Assembly (NCBI GenBank): GCA_048939465.1
Contig: JBHLPL010000048.1
Location: 1 to 13,610 of the forward strand
Direction: 5' to 3'
Origin: Promethearchaeota archaeon
GTDB lineage: Archaea; Asgardarchaeota; Odinarchaeia; Odinarchaeales; JBHLKK01
Length of the DNA: 13,610 bases
The translations under genes were made by a program, and so were the position numbers. Under the pieces are notes generated by a model. That model was given only the letters and a program-made list of their open reading frames with translations. It made no database searches and was not told the DNA's origin. This document shows positions 469 through 9,866 of the stretch, piece by piece; position 1 is the stretch's first letter, and the number at the start of each line of letters is the position of its first letter.

Positions 469-604
469 GATTAAATCATTCTTAGTTCGGATTTAAGTGA
501 TGAGGGATGAAGTAATTCTCCCTACATATTTCCTCTTATCTGAATAATTAACTGATTAACTACGTTCCCGTTGACGGAACTAGTTGCGGGGGGTGGGGAT
601 GTGT

Positions 605-2125
605 ATGAATAGAAAATCATTAGTCGGTTTATTGTTTTGTGTAATGTTTCTTGCAAGTTTTGCAGTGGGTTTAGTTCAGGTTCGAAGTATAGAATTTCCA
701 GATGGTTATGCGACAATTCATGATGTTGATAAAGCATTTGACGGTTTGAATATCTTTTTAGAAAAGGGGACCAATAAAGGTGCTTTTGTTGTAGATATGG
801 AAGGTAATCTTATTAGTAGTTCTGCTATTGGTGATGGTCATATAGATTTTATGAACTCAACAACGGTTGTAATCACTACAGGAAGGGCTGGTTATATATG
901 GAATATGATTGACAATAATTTGGTAAACCTATCTTTTGGCAGCCATCATGATCTAGAATATAATCCTTTTACGGACACATTCTTGATTTTGAAAGGTGTA
1001 CGAGAAGGTAGTTGTGAGAATCCTGATGGTATAACGATGCCGATTGAATATGATGACATATTAGAGGTTGACCGAGAAGGTAATGTGGTTTGGGAATGGG
1101 ACATGAGTGAACATATTCCATTTGATTTAATGGAACATAGTTTACGGTGGGAAGTGAAGGGGAAAGGTGAGAACCAAGCGCACGATTGGTCACATGCAAA
1201 TGCTGTTTTTTGGGATATTGATAAGAATATGATATATCTCAATACGCGAAACTTAGACACATTTTATAAAATTGACAAATTGACAGGGGATATTGTCTGG
1301 GCGTGTGGAAGATATAATGGTGACTTTACTTTGTTGGACAAGGACGGAGACGAAGTTGAATCTCTCTGGTATCATAGTCATGGACTCGAAAAGATGAGCG
1401 AGAATCATTTTATACAGTTTGATAATGATATTTATAATTCAAATACAGTATCACCTTGGGACGGAAACTCTTCATTATTAGAAATAGAGGTTGATGAAGA
1501 AAATATGGTTGCTAGAGAGGTTTGGAGATGGATAGCTCCAATCGAGTATTTTGCAGACCGTTTTGGTGATGCTAATAGAATGCCTAATGGTAATACTTTG
1601 GGTTGTTTTGGTGTTCCGCCATCACATTTGACTGAAGTGACATCTGAAGGGGAAATTGTGTGGGAAATGTTGTTAAGTGATTATCAGGTATACAGAGTAG
1701 AACGATTCTTGACAAAACCGTTAGCTGAGATTGTGCCAACGGGTTCATTTACACAAGGAAGTCCGATTGTTTTAACATTTAACGTTTTGGACACAATTAA
1801 GCGTTCATATCTTACTGGTGGTGTCCTTACTATAATTGAAGACGATTTAGTTTTGAAAGAAATGACATTTCAGTTTTCACCATACTGGCAAGAAACAGAG
1901 TTATTTGTGGATATAGGTGAATTACCACTAGGTAGACATAATTTAAAACTTACAGTTGAAAACTGTGATGGAATATCAAATTCTGTTGATTTTACAGTCT
2001 ATGTCTCCTATTCTAAAACAGTGTGGTCAGAACAGGTTTTTGTGACTATGCTGTCATTGGGTGCAATTGTAGGAATCGCATTTGCCACATTCGCAGGATA
2101 CCATCTAACGAAAAAATACAGGTAA
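605..2125 (+). CDS. Arylsulfotransferase (ASST) family protein, secreted, with a C-terminal beta-rich domain and membrane anchor
   Basis: N-terminal hydrophobic signal (MNRKSLVGLLFCVMFLASFAVG). ASST-type motifs SHHDLEY, DWSHANAV, NTRNLD, WYHSHG and GDANRMPNGNTL. C-terminal TM plus basic tail (VFVTMLSLGAIVGIAFATFAGYHLTKKYR). ATG 605 (alternative 599), preceded by ggtgggg, is preferred over TTG 584. Confidence 0.85.
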   Translation: MNRKSLVGLLFCVMFLASFAVGLVQVRSIEFPDGYATIHDVDKAFDGLNIFLEKGTNKGAFVVDMEGNLISSSAIGDGHIDFMNSTTVVITTGRAGYIWNMIDNNLVNLSFGSHHDLEYNPFTDTFLILKGVREGSCENPDGITMPIEYDDILEVDREGNVVWEWDMSEHIPFDLMEHSLRWEVKGKGENQAHDWSHANAVFWDIDKNMIYLNTRNLDTFYKIDKLTGDIVWACGRYNGDFTLLDKDGDEVESLWYHSHGLEKMSENHFIQFDNDIYNSNTVSPWDGNSSLLEIEVDEENMVAREVWRWIAPIEYFADRFGDANRMPNGNTLGCFGVPPSHLTEVTSEGEIVWEMLLSDYQVYRVERFLTKPLAEIVPTGSFTQGSPIVLTFNVLDTIKRSYLTGGVLTIIEDDLVLKEMTFQFSPYWQETELFVDIGELPLGRHNLKLTVENCDGISNSVDFTVYVSYSKTVWSEQVFVTMLSLGAIVGIAFATFAGYHLTKKYR

Positions 2126-2540: not shown

Positions 2541-3155
2541 ATGTCCGAAAAAGCTGACAAGGCTGATGGGGCTGCTGATGAGTCTTCCCGGTTTGGAGCG
2601 GAACCTGCCTCTCTTGGACTTTTTGGCCTCGCAGTCGCAGCACTGGTGTTGGCATCAACAGACCTTGGGTTCGCTTCAGCCACAGCCAAGTCCCTTATGA
2701 TTCCTTGGACAGTTTGTCTTGGGGCTACTGCTCAACTTATAGCGGGGATTATTGATTTCAAGAGAAAGAACGTCTTTGGTGGGACAGTCTTCACCACCTT
2801 CTCACTCTTGTGGTATTCAGTCTCGCTGACATTATTCATCACAATCTTTGGTGGTGCTCCCTTTGACATGACTCATTATGCCTATGGTTTGATTGGATTC
2901 TTGGTGTTTGGCATCATCATGACTGTTGCCTCCACCATGACAAACTTGACTTTTGTCACCATCTTAGTCTTTATCGACCTCGCCTTAGTGACGTTGGTCC
3001 CCCACGTGCTGATCGGTACACCGGCTTTTATCGTTGGCATCTTTCTAGTCTGTGTTTCGGTGTCCTCTTTCTACGGAGCGGCAGCCGTACTCATAAACAC
3101 CATGGCAGGAAGAACAGTACTCCCTTTGGGGAGAAAGCTTTGGAAGCCCCCCTAG
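2541..3155 (+). CDS. satP: Acetate/succinate uptake channel, GPR1/FUN34/YaaH (SatP) family
   Basis: Signature AEPASLGLFGL (family ANPAPLGL.GF), GATAQLIAGIIDFKRKNVFGGTVF, six hydrophobic segments, C-terminal GRTVLPLG. Confidence 0.9.
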   Translation: MSEKADKADGAADESSRFGAEPASLGLFGLAVAALVLASTDLGFASATAKSLMIPWTVCLGATAQLIAGIIDFKRKNVFGGTVFTTFSLLWYSVSLTLFITIFGGAPFDMTHYAYGLIGFLVFGIIMTVASTMTNLTFVTILVFIDLALVTLVPHVLIGTPAFIVGIFLVCVSVSSFYGAAAVLINTMAGRTVLPLGRKLWKPP

Positions 3156-3270
3156 GATCATCTTTCTTTATGGATTCGTCGAAGTTGACCCGTACTTGCT
3201 GTTTCTGCTAATGTATGAACCCAAATTTCAGCAGTAATCTTTTGAGGTAGGTCGCATAGGTTCGTTCCAT

Positions 3271-3576
3271 ATGGAGTTTCATGATAGAATCTATGAGGTT
3301 GTGGTTTCGGGGAAGGTTTATGGATTCTTCTTAGAATGGAAGGAGAACAGGGCAATCTTGCTAGCTATTCCCGATGCCGGGGGACAGGCTGATATGTCTC
3401 CCAAGTATCCGGAGCAACTGGACTGGCTTCTTCCCAAGCTTGAAGGTATTAAGGGTTTGAAGCGGATCTGGACGACAGTATGGAAAATTAGGACAGAGTC
3501 GGCTCTTCGTAAAGTGGAGCAGCTTTTTGAAAAGGAGGGGCGAGTATCTGCAAGACCGAGATCAAGTTTCTATTGA
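3271..3576 (+). CDS. Hypothetical protein, 101 aa (possibly a truncated gene)
   Basis: Protein-like composition, no overlap with confident genes, weak aggt RBS, T-tract at 3599-3605 downstream. No family recognised. Confidence 0.5.
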   Translation: MEFHDRIYEVVVSGKVYGFFLEWKENRAILLAIPDAGGQADMSPKYPEQLDWLLPKLEGIKGLKRIWTTVWKIRTESALRKVEQLFEKEGRVSARPRSSFY

Positions 3577-3643: not shown

Positions 3644-4192
3644 CTATTTCTCACGCTTTTTCAGCACATTTATGATGCTTTCCACCCACCGAAGTTCAGC
3701 GTTACCTTTGGCAAGGCCGTGGTCAAAGATGATTTCGGCACCAAAAGGTAGCGGCTGCTGTTGCTTCCTAGACTTCTCCAGCCTGGCGATTCTTTCAGTC
3801 AATCTGACATGATAGGCCTCCAGGCATTGGATGGCTTCGTCAGGACGTAAAAGCCCAATATCGGCGGCACCAATATCGATCCGTCGCCGTGGTTGCTCCG
3901 GTTCAGATAAATAGAGTTTTGTGTGATCCCTAAGGACGTTCTTTCCCTTGCTGGTGATTTTGTAGAGTTTTCGGACGGGGAGCTTTCCCGATGTATCACG
4001 TCGACTAGAGATTAGTTTCGCTTTTTCGAGTCGTGTGAGAATTGCATATATTGATGAGAAGCCAATGTCTGTCCAATTGCGCATGCCACGGTATCGGATT
4101 GTTTCATCTAGACCATAACCGTGCGTTTCGCCCTCATTCACCAGACTGAGGATGGCGATCTCGGCAGGTGTAAATTTCTCCTTTATTCTCAT
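3644..4192 (-). CDS. PadR family transcriptional regulator with C-terminal dimerisation domain
   Basis: Winged-HTH motifs ILSLVNEGETHGYGL, SSIYAILTRLEKAKLI and RKLYKITSKGK. Helical C-terminus ending AELRWVESII. Confidence 0.92.
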   Translation of the reverse strand: MRIKEKFTPAEIAILSLVNEGETHGYGLDETIRYRGMRNWTDIGFSSIYAILTRLEKAKLISSRRDTSGKLPVRKLYKITSKGKNVLRDHTKLYLSEPEQPRRRIDIGAADIGLLRPDEAIQCLEAYHVRLTERIARLEKSRKQQQPLPFGAEIIFDHGLAKGNAELRWVESIINVLKKREK

Positions 4193-4208
4193 AAGAGAAT
4201 ATTCTGTT

Positions 4209-4232
4209 GATATAATGCTACTTAAGTTTTTT
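4209..4232 (-). promoter_or_regulatory. Putative BRE/TATA for padR (leaderless)
   Basis: The minus strand reads gAAAAAA-CTTAAGTA, about 27-40 nt upstream of ATG 4192. An alternative ATTATATC lies at 4216-4209. Confidence 0.4.
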
Positions 4233-4312
4233 CATTCGTTAATCTGCGAGGTAATAGCAAGCCGACCATGTAAAAATGTAGTTAAATGAATTCTCTCTAC
4301 TCACCGAAGATT

Positions 4313-4771
4313 TCAACCCAGATACATGTATATGAGACATCCCAAGGATATCCAAAATGCCATTGTCACAATAAATCCCATTTTCCTGTCTATTCTGAAT
4401 GACACACCGATCATATTGAAGGCGGCTACGTAGAAGACAATTATGTAGAAGATATGAAGGGCCAGTATTTCTCGGAATGGAATTCTTAGAATGTAATCCA
4501 ACGTTAATTCTAAAAAGAGATAGAAGAGAATAATCCCAAGAGATATGATTACCGGTTTTTCCGCCTTCTTCAAATACCAGATTAGTACCACTGTATAGGG
4601 AGCTATTAGAAAGATAACAAGAGCCCCAAATCCCCCCCGGAGTGCCATGTATCCAAGTTTACTTGAAAGGAAGATACCACTCACGAAAATGAAGAAGAAA
4701 ACAGAAGCGGCGATGAAGACGATATGCAATACCCTACTCAGTTCGATTTGTTTAGTCTCCACAGTCCCCAT
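4313..4771 (-). CDS. Hypothetical integral membrane protein (4-5 TM)
   Basis: 152-aa ORF with a gagggg RBS and four to five hydrophobic segments. It fills the gap between neighbouring genes without overlap. Confidence 0.8.
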   Translation of the reverse strand: MGTVETKQIELSRVLHIVFIAASVFFFIFVSGIFLSSKLGYMALRGGFGALVIFLIAPYTVVLIWYLKKAEKPVIISLGIILFYLFLELTLDYILRIPFREILALHIFYIIVFYVAAFNMIGVSFRIDRKMGFIVTMAFWISLGCLIYMYLG

Positions 4772-4979
4772 TTTTTCCCCTCAAAATCGCTAATATTGTG
4801 ATATGAATCTTAAAGAAGAGCCCAGTGTTCGTAATCTTTTCAAAGGTCCCCCCTCTTGTTCATTGTCGCAGGCTGGCCGGTTATTTATTGCAGATTAGAG
4901 ACTTTTTTCTGTGGGAAGACCTCATTTTGGTGTATTTGGACCACAGGGTATATTGCCAAGTCACCATTCTCACTTTGGT

Positions 4980-5150
4980 CTATCTTTTCTTTAATGCCAG
5001 GCCGCAACAGCTGAATTCTCCGTGCTCAGAGCACTCACATTCTGCAACAGATTTTCCAACTTCTCTGCATTCTTTCACTACTTGAAGTTCAAGCCCACAT
5101 TCTCCACAGTAGTAAATGTCTCCCTTCTTCATGTCATGGCAACTAACCAT
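4980..5150 (-). CDS. Small Cys-rich desulforedoxin/desulfoferrodoxin-N-like metal-binding protein, 56 aa (not in the ORF track)
   Basis: Hand translation: MVSCHDMKKGDIYYCGECGLELQVVKECREVGKSVAECECSEHGEFSCCGLALKKR*. GAGGTG RBS just upstream of the ATG. YxCxxCG...CCG motif, 8 Cys. Confidence 0.85.
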   Translation of the reverse strand: MVSCHDMKKGDIYYCGECGLELQVVKECREVGKSVAECECSEHGEFSCCGLALKKR

Positions 5151-5277
5151 AGCACCTCATCTCCTTATTTTCTCAGAATCGTGAGGCTTTATGAGTCTAA
5201 GAAAGTATTAAAGGTTTCTAGGCAATCTTAAAAACCAAAGGTCTTCTTCAATATGAATAGGAGAGGTTGAACATATT

Positions 5278-6159
5278 ATGCCAAAAGCAAGTGTAAACAA
5301 CATTGAGATTGAATATGAGACCTTCGGGGACCCGAATTCAAAGCCGCTGTTATTGATAGCGGGTCTGGGAGGTCAAATGCATGCTTGGTCGGATGACATG
5401 TGCGGAAACCTTGCAAGTCTTGGTTTTTTTGTTATTAGATTTGACAATCGGGACGTAGGCCTGTCAACAAAAATGACAGATGCAGGTATCCCGAACTTTG
5501 CGGAGATTAACGCTGCGTATGCACGTGGAGAGAGACCGGAGGTACCCTACACATTGGAGGACATGGCCGGTGATGCAGTTGGACTGTTGGATGCTCTGAA
5601 CATAGATAGGGCGCACATCATTGGTGCATCGATGGGTGGAATGATCGCACAAGTTCTGGCGTATAAACACCCGTCTCGAGTTCTATCTCTTACGATAATC
5701 ATAAGCACGACTGGCAATCCTGAATTGCCGCAAGGGAAACCGGAGATCATGGCGCAGTTCTTTGCACCTGTTCCTTCCGAGCGTCAGGCGTATATTGAAG
5801 AAATGGTCAAACGCGATCGACTTATTCATGGCACTTTTGATTTTGACGAGGCTAAAGGAAGGGAATATAGAGCAAAAGAGTACGATCGCAGCTATTATCC
5901 TGAAGGGGCAATACGACAACTGGCAGCCATGGCTATTCCCGGTAATACCAAGCCCGAACTCTCTGCAATACGTGCGCCCACACTTGTTATCCATGGAAAG
6001 GAGGACCCATTCTACCCTGTGGAAGCTGGAAAAGACATTGCATCAGCGATACCTGGGGCAGAATTACTAGTTCTGGACGGGATGGGGCATAGTCTCCCGA
6101 CCGAAGTTATACCACGAATAATCGATGCTTTAGTGGCAAATACTAATAAGGTAATATAG
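5278..6159 (+). CDS. Alpha/beta fold hydrolase (esterase-like)
   Basis: LLLIAGLG oxyanion region, FDNRDVGLS, nucleophile elbow GASMGG, acid HGKEDP, catalytic His in GMGH. RBS ggagaggt. Confidence 0.95.
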   Translation: MPKASVNNIEIEYETFGDPNSKPLLLIAGLGGQMHAWSDDMCGNLASLGFFVIRFDNRDVGLSTKMTDAGIPNFAEINAAYARGERPEVPYTLEDMAGDAVGLLDALNIDRAHIIGASMGGMIAQVLAYKHPSRVLSLTIIISTTGNPELPQGKPEIMAQFFAPVPSERQAYIEEMVKRDRLIHGTFDFDEAKGREYRAKEYDRSYYPEGAIRQLAAMAIPGNTKPELSAIRAPTLVIHGKEDPFYPVEAGKDIASAIPGAELLVLDGMGHSLPTEVIPRIIDALVANTNKVI

Positions 6160-6369
6160 GTGGGCCATCAAGAGAGATTTGCGCATACTCTCGATTCTTA
6201 TCTCTATTCAGCAGAGAGGATCTCAGGCTGAGGATGTAATGAGAGATAGAACAGTAGTCCTTAGAGGGGAATGGAGGAGAAGGAAGGAGGCGTTGATGCG
6301 AGTCAGAATGAGTTGGAGACTGTACCAAGACTTCAATTCCGTGGAAGCCATAGATTGGGCCGTTCTTCC

Positions 6370-6705
6370 TCAGTCATCTCCTCTGCTCTTAAGAGTATAG
6401 GGCTCAAACAAAAGGATGTATGTATTTACCGAGCTCTTTGGGCAGTGCTCCACGCCTTTTGGTATCACTGCTAATTCTCCTTCACGCAAAACTACATCCG
6501 AATAAGGTTCTCTCAGTTGAATAGTCAATTCCCCTCTTAAGACGTAGAAAAGCTCATCCTCGTTCGTGTGTTTATGCCAGTGATAATCCCCTCTGCACAA
6601 TACCATTCGAACAGCTTGATCGTTGACTCTCGCAACTTCAACGGGATGGTAGGGTTTCTCTCCGACATCTTTCATTTTTTCTTCCAGATTAATCTTAGGA
6701 ATCAT
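6370..6705 (-). CDS. Cupin domain protein
   Basis: Cupin motif 1 HWHKHTNEDELFYVLRGEL and motif 2 GELAVIPKGVEHCP. Confidence 0.92.
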   Translation of the reverse strand: MIPKINLEEKMKDVGEKPYHPVEVARVNDQAVRMVLCRGDYHWHKHTNEDELFYVLRGELTIQLREPYSDVVLREGELAVIPKGVEHCPKSSVNTYILLFEPYTLKSRGDD

Positions 6706-6727
6706 AATTGCTAGTAGTAGTCAGGGC

Positions 6728-6737
6728 TATTTATAAT
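6728..6737 (-). promoter_or_regulatory. TATA box for the cupin gene (leaderless)
   Basis: Minus strand ATTATAAATA, about 23-32 nt upstream of ATG 6705. No RBS before the ATG. Confidence 0.55.
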
Positions 6738-6764
6738 CTAATCTCTTTACCTTTTTTCTATTCT

Positions 6765-6953
6765 TTAAACGTGGGTTACCTCTATGGCTCCGGCTTGACA
6801 GCATCTTATACACTCTTCGCAGCCTTTGCAGTATTTTGGATTAGCTGGATAAGCTACGTTATCGATTAGCTCTAAGACTCCATAAATGCACGCTTTGATG
6901 CAGTCACTGCATCCTGTACATCTTCTTGTGTCGATGGTCACTTTATACCTCAT
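6765..6953 (-). CDS. 2x[4Fe-4S] ferredoxin, 62 aa
   Basis: CTGCSDCIKAC and CKGCEECIRCC motifs. GAGGAGG RBS 9 nt upstream (6969-6963). Confidence 0.93.
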   Translation of the reverse strand: MRYKVTIDTRRCTGCSDCIKACIYGVLELIDNVAYPANPKYCKGCEECIRCCQAGAIEVTHV

Positions 6954-7048
6954 GCGTTTCGGCCTCCTCTTTCTACGGAGTAGCGGTGGTACTCACAAAC
7001 ACTATGGCAGGCAGAACAGTTCTTCCCTTAGGGGAGAAAGACTTCTAA
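6953..7048 (+). pseudogene. Orphan 3' fragment of a satP paralog
   Basis: Translates CVSASSFYGVAVVLTNTMAGRTVLPLGEKDF*, versus CVSVSSFYGAAAVLINTMAGRTVLPLGRKLWKPP* at 3051-3155. Hand count: 66/81 nt and 23/27 aa identical. Confidence 0.9.
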
Positions 7049-8181
7049 CGTAAGCCGATTATCCCTCTAATCCCCGCTCTTTTTACGTCTATTGCTCTGT
7101 AGGGGCATAATTCGAAGCAACAGAGACAATTGACACATGTTTTTCTATCTACTTCGGGGTAGGGTGTAAGTCCGATAGCGCTGACCGGGCAGTTTTCGGC
7201 ACACGTACCGCATTGTGTGCATCTATCGTGCAAGAACAAGGGGATTTTCTTCATGTACCTATGGAATACTTCACCAAGAAACGTTGAAGATATACCGACT
7301 ATTGCCCCTGAAGGCAGACTGAGTTTCTCTCTCTCCTCTGGGAATCCGTCTCCGACGATTTCTATCCTTCTCAGATCTCCGATTCCTAGCCCTCGTTCAT
7401 GACATATTCTTATATGTGGAACTGCTGCCAGCGGCTCGTAACCTGCCATGGCAACCGCTACGGCATCCACTGCGACCGCATCAAATCCTGCAATTATCGC
7501 ATTTACGTTGACCATTTTGCCAGAGGATGGTCCCATGCCCACCATCGCCTGAATCACGTCCATGACATTCAAGATAGGTCTTCCATTGATTACCGAGTAT
7601 AGATCTGCCAGAACCTCTGAGAACTCCTCTAATGTCCGCCCCTTGAGATGATTTAGAACTTTCCGAGCCCCCGGCTGAATTCCCCAGAAGTTTTTGATTG
7701 CCCCAGTATAGACAGTCTGCATGTGGGTCTTCCACTTTGGTATGTTTATTATGGCATCAGCTTCAAAGAAGACTGGAGCAATCAATGTCTCTTTCAGCCT
7801 TCTAGCATTCTTGATCTCCAGCTCAACTGGTCCTGCTGTTTCAAATGAAGCAAATTTAGCTCCGGTTTTGTTGATGATCTCTAATATTCCAGCAGCCCTG
7901 AATTGCTCCTTTGATTTGGTCAGCGTTTCTTCTCCTCCGGGAGAGTCCCCTACCAGAACCTCTGCCCCGTCTTCCTTTGCCAGAAGTATTAATTCTTTGA
8001 TAAGTCTGGGATCAGTAAAGACACCCTCCTTCGCCATTAGCATATTCGGTTTTAGCAGTACCTTTTCTCCCTTCCTGAAAAGCTTTTGAAACCCTCCGAC
8101 AAGATCTATGGCATTCAAAACAGCATCTTTGAGCGTTGCGTATTTCTTGATTTGAACAACTGATACTCGAGCATCGGTCAA
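7045..8181 (-). CDS. DUF362 domain protein with C-terminal 2x[4Fe-4S] ferredoxin domain
   Basis: KVLLKPN, INIPKWKTH, TGAIKNFWG and DAVAVDAVA motifs. C-terminal CTQCGTCAENCP and CVNCLCCFELCP. TTG start with gagggt RBS and a TTTTAAAC TATA at 8239-8232. Confidence 0.9.
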   Translation of the reverse strand: MTDARVSVVQIKKYATLKDAVLNAIDLVGGFQKLFRKGEKVLLKPNMLMAKEGVFTDPRLIKELILLAKEDGAEVLVGDSPGGEETLTKSKEQFRAAGILEIINKTGAKFASFETAGPVELEIKNARRLKETLIAPVFFEADAIINIPKWKTHMQTVYTGAIKNFWGIQPGARKVLNHLKGRTLEEFSEVLADLYSVINGRPILNVMDVIQAMVGMGPSSGKMVNVNAIIAGFDAVAVDAVAVAMAGYEPLAAVPHIRICHERGLGIGDLRRIEIVGDGFPEEREKLSLPSGAIVGISSTFLGEVFHRYMKKIPLFLHDRCTQCGTCAENCPVSAIGLTPYPEVDRKTCVNCLCCFELCPYRAIDVKRAGIRGIIGLR

Positions 8182-8303: not shown

Positions 8304-8531
8304 TCAGAATTTGATTATTACATCCTTGGCAAGTATCTCTGGATCCTCTGTGTTTGGAACTTCCAAGAAGACCATATGAAACTTGGCAAAGCCCATGTCT
8401 ATCAGTTGACTTATGCTCTCGAAGCACTTTTCAGACGTCCCATGAACTACTCCCTTCCTGTGCTCATCTGCGGGTCTGTCAAGTTGGAGAGCCCTACCTT
8501 TGGCGATTTCTCTCGTTAATTGATCGAAAAA
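8304..8531 (-). pseudogene. Orphan C-terminal fragment of an LLM-class (luciferase-like, possibly F420-dependent) oxidoreductase
   Basis: Startless 75-aa frame FFDQLTREIAKGRALQLDRPADEHRKGVVHGTSEKCFESISQLIDMGFAKFHMVFLEVPNTEDPEILAKDVIIKF*. It matches the LLM C-terminal pattern GTPEE..E.I..L.D.G...F.L.F......E.LA..V.P.F as recalled. Confidence 0.7.
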
Positions 8532-9866
8532 TCATAAGGCAAATACAACAAGAACATACGTAAGGGCAATCCCCAAGCTTATCGGTAGAATGATCCCACT
8601 GTACTTAAGGAATTCCATAGTAGTCAGTTTAATTCCAGATTTTTTCAAAATATCCATCGCAATTATCGTACTTGGTGATCCTATTGGGAGCAGATCGCCG
8701 CCCAGTAAGGCGCAAGAGAGAAGGGACCAGTGCAAAGGATGAGCGTTGGGAAGACCCATAACATTTACGCCCAGCTGCTGGGCAACAGGTATGAATGTCA
8801 AGGCCACAGGTATATTATCAACCACGCCTGATAGCAGACCACCTATCAGGCCCATAAGGACGATCGCCAAGGGAAGATTCGCACCGACTACGGCTCCCAA
8901 TCCGCGAGCGATTGCATCCAGCACACCTGCTGCCTCAACTCCGCCGATTGTAATGAACAGACCTATGAAGAAAAATATGGTATCCCATCTAACCTTTCCT
9001 ATCGATTCTTCCACTCTTCTCGTAAAGAAGAGCATCGCTATTGCTCCCAAAAGGGCAGCAAAACCTATGGTGATTCCAAAAGATCTCCCTATCACGAAAA
9101 GTATTATCACACCGGTCAGCACGGCTGCCGAACTGTAGAAGAAGTAAATGTTCTCTACCACGCTCCACGCATCAAATGCATCCAGCTGTGACCGGATAAC
9201 TGAGACCCTCGACTCAGAGGGAGTAATCAGTTTCTTTCTGTTCATTCTTCTTAGTACGAAGATTAGAACCAAACCGAGGATGGTTGCCAGGGGAAGTCCG
9301 GTGATCGCAAACTCACCGAACCCTATAGGGGGATCAACACTCGGGTGTGATGCAATCGTGATGCTTGGTATTGAAGACGTGACCAAAGCCATTCCCGCCG
9401 CGTCTGCCACAAAAACCTCTGATATGACATATGGCAGAGGATCATATTCCAGAACATCACAAGCTATCATTGTCAACGAACCAATGATCATGGTCGAAAC
9501 GATGTTTCCGATTATGGTCGTGAAAAGGAAGATAAGTGTACACATGGTGGTCAGGAGCTTTGCGGGGCTATCCCCTACTCTCTTTATGACCTGAATAGCG
9601 ATGAATTGAAAGAGCCCACTTTCTCGCGCAACTTCCACTATGATTAGCATTCCGACGATAAGCATTATTGTTTCCAGCTCAATGAATTCCAGCGGGTTGA
9701 CAAGACCTGGCGGAGTTGGATGTTCAAAGCTAAACATGCCCAATGCGATGCCTGCGATCATCGTTGCCACAGCTCCAACCAGTGCTGCAAGAACCCTCGG
9801 TATTTTCTCGGTGAGAATTAGGGCGTATACTACAACCAGGATTCCCACGAACACCCACATCGACAT
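8532..9866 (-). CDS. ArsB/NhaD-like (IT superfamily, SLC13/P-protein related) ion transporter
   Basis: About 12 hydrophobic segments. Motifs KIPRVLAALVGA, GMLIIVEVARESGLF, KVRWDTIFFFIGLFITIGGVEAAG and SGVVDNIP. AGGTGA RBS. Confidence 0.88.
   Translation of the reverse strand: MSMWVFVGILVVVYALILTEKIPRVLAALVGAVATMIAGIALGMFSFEHPTPPGLVNPLEFIELETIMLIVGMLIIVEVARESGLFQFIAIQVIKRVGDSPAKLLTTMCTLIFLFTTIIGNIVSTMIIGSLTMIACDVLEYDPLPYVISEVFVADAAGMALVTSSIPSITIASHPSVDPPIGFGEFAITGLPLATILGLVLIFVLRRMNRKKLITPSESRVSVIRSQLDAFDAWSVVENIYFFYSSAAVLTGVIILFVIGRSFGITIGFAALLGAIAMLFFTRRVEESIGKVRWDTIFFFIGLFITIGGVEAAGVLDAIARGLGAVVGANLPLAIVLMGLIGGLLSGVVDNIPVALTFIPVAQQLGVNVMGLPNAHPLHWSLLSCALLGGDLLPIGSPSTIIAMDILKKSGIKLTTMEFLKYSGIILPISLGIALTYVLVVFAL

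Follow-up and report, generated by a model that had tools for sequence, protein, structure and literature searches.

The spacer between a DUF362 gene and a ferredoxin gene in an uncultured Asgard archaeon is the 3' end of a second, dead copy of the transporter gene satP, and it stands in the place of the ferredoxin's own upstream region and ribosome site. We show the relic itself, both of its junctions, the loss of the native site and the genome-wide use of Shine-Dalgarno (SD) sites. On the strand of the ferredoxin the relic carries an AGGAGG motif, which, on balance, would probably be used for initiation on a DUF362-ferredoxin message. The event belongs to a known kind, the capture of expression signals at a rearrangement scar; its interest is modest and no new kind of biology is opened. 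If confirmed, it would provide a clean natural case of a gene that loses its promoter and ribosome site and is rescued by whatever sequence lands upstream, the rescuing sequence here being three codons of a dead transporter gene read backward.

The satP relic and its junctions

The window analyzed is a whole contig of 13,610 bases (C95) from a genome bin of 1.96 Mb that is 91% complete; the host lineage is given as Hodarchaeota, and the DNA runs with a matching stretch come from mangrove and other sediments; no RNA run with it was listed. Its genes of relevance here include an arylsulfotransferase-like gene (584-2125, plus strand) and an intact satP (2541-3155, plus strand), which encodes a GPR1/FUN34/YaaH acetate/succinate transporter of 204 residues (Pfam PF01184, E 1.6e-18) with orthologues in relatives at 83-96% amino acid identity. 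These are followed by an unnamed 101-aa ORF (orf101; 3271-3576, plus strand), a PadR gene (3644-4192, minus strand), an unnamed 152-aa gene (hyp152; 4313-4771, minus strand), an alpha/beta hydrolase (5278-6159, plus strand) and a cupin (6370-6705, minus strand). PadR, the hydrolase and the cupin were assigned by Pfam, and the 101-aa and 152-aa frames are without family. Beyond them lie a 62-aa 2x[4Fe-4S] ferredoxin (6765-6953, minus strand), a DUF362 protein gene with a C-terminal 4Fe-4S domain (7045-8181, minus strand; PF04015, E 7e-48), presumed to be the upstream cistron, and a CitMHS-type transporter (8532-9866, minus strand). An Rfam search of the window gave zero matches.

The spacer between ferredoxin and DUF362 was assigned to satP by its nucleotide match to the intact gene. 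Searching the window's own genome with 6953-7048 shows that 6953-7044 repeats satP 3051-3140, codons 171-200, on the same plus strand with 84% identity (E 1.5e-20, match listed to 3137), and at the protein level the relic is 69% identical to residues 166-200 (E 3.7e-9). The homology has a clear start at 6953, within the ferredoxin start codon, and stops near 7044, no more than about 3 nt from the DUF362 stop codon (7045-7047, minus-strand reading), so the relic makes up the whole of the spacer. The first-pass annotation had proposed both the satP origin of the spacer and its beginning at the start codon, and the alignment bears out both. Its count of differences was likewise reproduced, with an ungapped codon comparison of the first 27 codons giving 15 substitutions from the intact copy, eight of which are single synonymous third-position changes. 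Past codon 27 the mismatch reflects plain divergence or, alternatively, two insertions of 1 nt each in the relic, whose tail is a deviant EKDF where the intact copy ends in RKLWKPP, and the in-frame TAA lies at 7046-7048. The relic has homology to the transporter family but comprises only the last 30 or so codons, not a full-length six-helix protein.

The junctions are further supported by six independently assembled Logan contigs from other runs, which span cupin, ferredoxin, relic and DUF362 without gaps at 99.3-99.9% identity; the arrangement is therefore not a chimeric assembly. These six population contigs show no variants from 6796 to about 8500, which covers the ferredoxin 5' half, the relic and DUF362, beside many variants in the adjacent cupin and the ferredoxin 3' end. 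This pattern suggests a recombination boundary or a recent sweep. We also note that the relic frame is open for 40 codons from a TTG (6926-7048, plus strand), overlapping the ferredoxin start on the other strand; nothing hints at its expression.

The AGGAGG motif and the loss of the native ribosome site

The ferredoxin next to the relic has both CxxCxxCxxxC motifs (Pfam Fer4_6, E 3.9e-9, plus Fer4_7, Fer4_9 and Fer4_10) and retains all eight cluster cysteines. Across an alignment of ten small ferredoxins C12, C18, C22, C42 and C48 are invariant, and C15 and C52 nearly so. Its protein was found in no contig besides the window's own by exact look-up, and a word-indexed protein search returned only itself. 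An exhaustive profile-free search recovered a family of stand-alone ferredoxins of 60-66 residues that aligns from residue 1, with the consensus MxYKVTIDxxKCxGC. The N-terminus MRYKVTID..C fits this family, and a 67%-identical orthologue begins with MRYKVTIN at the same residue. Because the family aligns from residue 1, and because an in-frame TGA lies 42 nt upstream of the ATG with no alternative start codon in between, we take the ATG at 6953 to be the native start. A weak similarity between satP 3016-3050 and the antisense of the first 12 ferredoxin codons (6916-6952), with a score of 17 and p of 0.02-0.05, was rejected as homology, since these codons match the ferredoxin family N-terminus and the 67%-identical orthologue.

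That orthologue lies on a sister-species contig (L096) with the order CitMHS, luciferase-like gene, DUF362, zinc-finger and radical-SAM genes on the other strand, and ferredoxin. There the ferredoxin sits 1.9 kb downstream of DUF362, behind a 330-nt AT-rich upstream region with a GGTGA SD site 6 nt before the ATG. Nucleotide homology between this contig and the window covers 6808-6953 (76%) and ends exactly at the ATG, the base where satP homology begins. The ferredoxin has thus lost its native ribosome site, and the only putative site now in front of it is that of the relic. The zinc-finger and radical-SAM orthologues are found on other contigs in the window's genome. These comparisons indicate that 92 nt of satP tail, in backward reading, now stand in place of the whole interval from the DUF362 stop to the ferredoxin ATG, the native promoter region and ribosome site included. 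A comparison of ferredoxin upstream regions in relatives, as proposed by the first-pass annotation, yields a native GGTGA and upstream region in the sister species that are missing in the window. It is rare to have, as here, both the before state, with GGTGA in the sister species, and the after state, with the relic's AGGAGG.

The putative replacement site is read from positions 6963-6969, cctcctc, which give GAGGAGG on the minus strand (including AGGAGG) and leave nine nucleotides (6962-6954) to the ATG at 6953-6951. This position and distance, put forward earlier, were verified in the sequence. The genome of the window clearly uses SD sites widely. Indeed, a match of at least five nucleotides to AGGAGGTGATC precedes 31% of 1,167 well-bounded starts genome-wide, against 7.5% of random positions, and the share rises to 39% for distal cistrons, that is, genes close behind a same-strand gene. 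AGGAGG is among the motifs that show a 4-8 fold enrichment ahead of start codons genome-wide; a 16S rRNA was not found in the genome bin by pattern or by the Rfam SSU model, and the anti-SD is inferred from motif enrichment only. Genome-wide, GGAGG spacers run from 4 to 12 nt with a mode of 7, and a spacer of 9 nt occurs in 10 of 141 cases; the 9-nt spacing of the relic motif is within the used range and off the mode. To our knowledge, translation signals in Hodarchaeota have barely been studied.

How the ferredoxin might be transcribed was approached with a scan for TATA boxes and T-runs, as bacterial promoter and terminator scans are inapplicable to an archaeon. A minus-strand pattern scan found no TATA-like box in the DUF362-ferredoxin spacer, and no run of at least five T occurs on the minus strand between 8214 and 6300, which makes expression as a distal cistron of DUF362 the likeliest route for the ferredoxin. 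In archaeal operons, reliance on SD sites is common among distal cistrons (review PMC7531240). In the account of such SD-dependent initiation that this review gives from Condo et al. (1999), the ferredoxin finds a counterpart, with a G-rich motif about 10 nt before a promoterless gene behind a same-strand gene; it differs from what is described there in that the putative site is non-native, takes the place of the orthologue's GGTGA and derives from a dead gene's opposite strand. The first-pass annotation had also considered that the ferredoxin may be translationally coupled to DUF362. Tight coupling is not supported, as the 91-nt gap between the two genes is longer than termination-reinitiation would allow. 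Folding of the spacer RNA is unremarkable (z +0.9), and a weak 4-bp hairpin is able to pair the first GGAG of the motif.

We further note that the cupin has no SD-like motif. A pattern scan places a TATAAATA box at 6728-6735 (minus strand), 22 nt before the cupin ATG (6705), and homology with the cupin locus of a same-genus relative (G001) includes this box. Although it lies downstream of the ferredoxin on the same strand, the cupin is probably transcribed separately, from a promoter of its own and with a leader that is very short.

Taken together, we propose that rearrangements in a recombination-prone locus would have left the 92-nt 3' end of a second satP copy and removed the ferredoxin's upstream region with its GGTGA site. 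The native ATG of the ferredoxin would then have been joined directly to the antisense strand of the satP tail, with the other end of the tail abutting the DUF362 stop. The ferredoxin would most likely be transcribed by read-through from DUF362 and translated as a distal cistron from AGGAGG, the antisense of satP Ala-Ser-Ser codons. Promoters or ribosome sites are known to be captured at rearrangement junctions, for example in the hybrid promoters made by insertion sequences. As in those cases, a gene stripped of its own expression signals would gain new ones from the sequence placed in front of it; unlike the insertion-sequence hybrid promoters, the present case has no mobile element, and the donor is coding DNA read backwards.

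How readily such a junction supplies a site was estimated by modelling a second satP placed antisense with 578 possible breakpoints, counting sites at 4-12 nt from the start. Only nine of these breakpoints (1.6%) yield a 6-mer site, all nine at one place that includes the real breakpoint, while a site of at least 5 nt arises from 10% of them. Combined with the lost native site and the intact ferredoxin, this statistic, which is post hoc and concerns one event, suggests that only a junction supplying a site survived.

Age of the relic and origin of the motif

The history of the relic was reconstructed by comparing it over 81 nt with satP of six relatives and polarising the changes. In this comparison the satP of the clade that includes the window's genome (G000) comes out as the sister of the relic, with seven derived sites shared between them relative to G001 and G002. 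Four changes common to satP of all four clade members are absent from the relic, which therefore split off before the clade diversified. Clearly relic-specific changes number four, three of them at second codon positions, and the synonymous differences between relic and satP fall mostly on the branch of the intact gene or are ambiguous. The reading of the first-pass annotation that the relic diverged as a real coding allele before truncation does not hold on this distribution. The synonymous pattern is as expected from an intact gene under purifying selection compared with a slowly changing relic, and does not show that the relic was ever in use as a working allele. Nor are the changes numerous enough to demonstrate constraint on the relic.

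The three codons behind the motif appear to be old. GCC is also present in G002, and TCC-TCT is common to the intact copies, from which we infer that GCC-TCC-TCT is ancestral. The antisense GAGGAGG would therefore predate the truncation, with the intact copy later losing it by a change from GCC to GTG, and a view of the site as newly evolved or as a later adaptation is not upheld. Reuse of this pre-existing accident is exaptation in the strict sense; the motif was not shaped for the job.

The two junctions of the relic need at least two events, and we searched for their traces. No satP 5' fragment was found elsewhere in the genome, no relative or contig examined contains an intact second satP convergent on DUF362, and a reciprocal junction of the ferredoxin upstream region with the satP 5' part was not found. 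The radical-SAM orthologue and 224 nt upstream of it are present on another contig of the window's genome (C74), where the sequence beyond is unrelated to satP. Nothing similar to the relic occurs in the 65-nt spacer that follows DUF362 in L084. We also considered whether G001 has a decayed satP relic downstream of its DUF362 gene; the one marginal match, with a score of 27 against a shuffle maximum of 24, was treated as chance because it has the wrong orientation, arose from eight tests and does not match intact satP genes.

The ancestry of the motif bears directly on another explanation, in which a deletion left the satP tail behind as functionless junk, the ferredoxin has low expression or is being lost, and AGGAGG is a coincidence of Ala-Ser-Ser codons. 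This explanation, possible but rather doubtful in our judgement, gains from the presence of the motif already in the ancestral coding sequence, from the confinement of the arrangement to one species and from the other gene tails in the same locus. It is also favored by the one-in-ten frequency of shorter sites among the modelled breakpoints, by the ferredoxin ORF having been skipped by gene callers (on six of the six Logan contigs) and by the mainly second-position changes on the relic branch, as expected of unconstrained DNA. Against it, the ferredoxin ORF is intact with all its ligand cysteines, and its population polymorphisms are mostly synonymous (four, with two conservative replacements). 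Moreover, few breakpoints place a 6-mer site at a usable distance, and with its native site gone the intact gene needs another. Selective retention of the satP fragment is unsupported, and the arrangement is species-specific.

In Rickettsia and Mycobacterium leprae, whose genomes shed genes by deletion, remnants of genes are known to persist between intact genes. The relic resembles these remnants in that the spacer is a decayed gene piece between neighbors that are intact to their start and stop codons, with a second tail, that of a luciferase-like gene, in the same locus. It differs from them in having an intact paralogue 3.9 kb away in the window, in lying antisense to the gene that it now precedes, and in its host, an Asgard archaeon with mosaic recombining neighborhoods and not a reductive intracellular genome.

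Reading the relic as the source of a ribosome site also places an antisense stretch on the DUF362-ferredoxin transcript. The first-pass annotation had pointed out that this RNA would be imperfectly complementary to satP mRNA, and the spacer RNA is indeed 84% complementary over 88 nt, with a longest perfect run of 16 nt. Pseudogene-derived antisense RNAs that regulate the parent gene are known from eukaryotes, and we know of no archaeal precedent. As in the eukaryotic examples, transcription of a truncated copy from its opposite strand would yield an RNA complementary to the parent mRNA; unlike them, the case of the satP relic is purely hypothetical. That the transcript acts in trans on satP mRNA, linking the two loci and giving the relic a reason to persist, seems very unlikely. 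The predicted duplex of -134 kcal/mol, against -43 +/- 5 for shuffles, agrees with such pairing, but any diverged inverted copy gives such an energy by construction, the target is at the very 3' end of the coding region, and the arrangement is not conserved in relatives. An antisense effect on satP is at present an unsupported prediction. It is equally hard to credit that the tail was selected for two roles, as ferredoxin leader and ribosome site after the loss of the gene's own promoter and site and also for pairing with satP mRNA, a combination that, if true, would mean that an Asgard archaeon has its acetate/succinate transport tuned by how the DUF362-ferredoxin redox pair is expressed.

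Recombination around DUF362

The replacement of the ferredoxin upstream region took place in a neighborhood that, from the comparison with relatives, can be described as a REARRANGEMENT hot spot. In every relative, similarity to the window is lost only a few bases away from the DUF362 stop codon. In G001, L079 and L096 a zinc-finger gene follows this stop, whereas in L084 about 65 nt are followed by the sequence of window 5217 downward, with the 152-aa gene and PadR. L084 is 92% identical to the window in this 152-aa/PadR segment (4014-5217) and 78% in DUF362. An independent contig in run X14 joins 5217 to 7200, and both L084 and this contig lack the block 5218-7044 that holds the hydrolase, cupin, ferredoxin and satP relic. 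The closest satP relatives keep satP, the 101-aa ORF, PadR and the 152-aa gene together. The hydrolase segment (5228-6250) is 89-92% identical to G001 and G002, with core genes at about 77%, and the core genes flanking the hydrolase and PadR/152-aa segments are 75-84% identical. These two segments look recently exchanged between species, and the block between the satP tails is composite, not one element.

This structure argues against an integrative element that used the satP 3' end as its target and brought along a replacement tail, with the two satP tails as attachment-site repeats. Integrative elements are known to duplicate the 3' end of a target gene, either a tRNA or a protein gene, as with the archaeal pNOB8-type and SSV-type integrases. 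The window is similar in that direct repeats of a gene 3' end bracket a 3.8-kb block of accessory-looking genes, with inner segments closer to relatives than the core genes are and with the upstream copy completing an intact gene. Unlike these elements, however, the block has no integrase or recombinase between the repeats, where Pfam finds only PadR, alpha/beta hydrolase, cupin and ferredoxin beside the two ORFs without family. The repeats are 16% diverged and so far from near-identical, and the block varies piecewise among relatives, with satP-orf101-PadR-hyp152 conserved and only 5218-7044 missing in the L084 type. Furthermore, satP of G000 shows no identity break at codon 170 against its closest relative, so that a chimeric intact satP with a native 5' part and a foreign 3' part was also rejected. 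We regard an integrative origin as highly improbable.

Several additional observations describe the wider locus. Between the CitMHS stop and DUF362 the window retains the 3' tail of a lost luciferase-like monooxygenase gene (8304-8531, minus strand), which was detected by tblastn with the G001 protein (residues 241-328, 52% identity, E 2.7e-21); G001, L079 and L096 have the whole gene at this place. The locus contains in it a second gene tail with its junction at a neighbor's stop codon. Window 3227-3286, the start of the 101-aa ORF and sequence upstream of it, is 75% identical in inverted orientation to L096:4175-4233, just after the DUF362 stop, with exact blocks of 16 nt and 11 nt; this hints that satP-orf101 may once have adjoined DUF362. 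Part of the 152-aa gene (4263-4676) has a summed depth two- to four-fold higher, and many metagenome contigs run from it into unrelated sequence, so it may be a repeated or widely shared module.

Other satP copies show irregularities of their own. The satP of G001 lies in two pieces on the ends of two contigs (the end of C16, and C47:12598-13012, L010), divided at residue 131/132, and a truncated sulfatase-like ORF adjoins the second piece; either the gene is interrupted or the assembly broke at a repeat. One in-frame TAG occurs in a distant satP paralogue (33-34% identity) in both G002 (C63:4633-5211) and G001 (C36:4605-5180); this paralogue could be a shared pseudogene, two ORFs or a gene with a read-through codon. 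The matching paralogue in the window's genome is cut by a contig end (C12:6-416).
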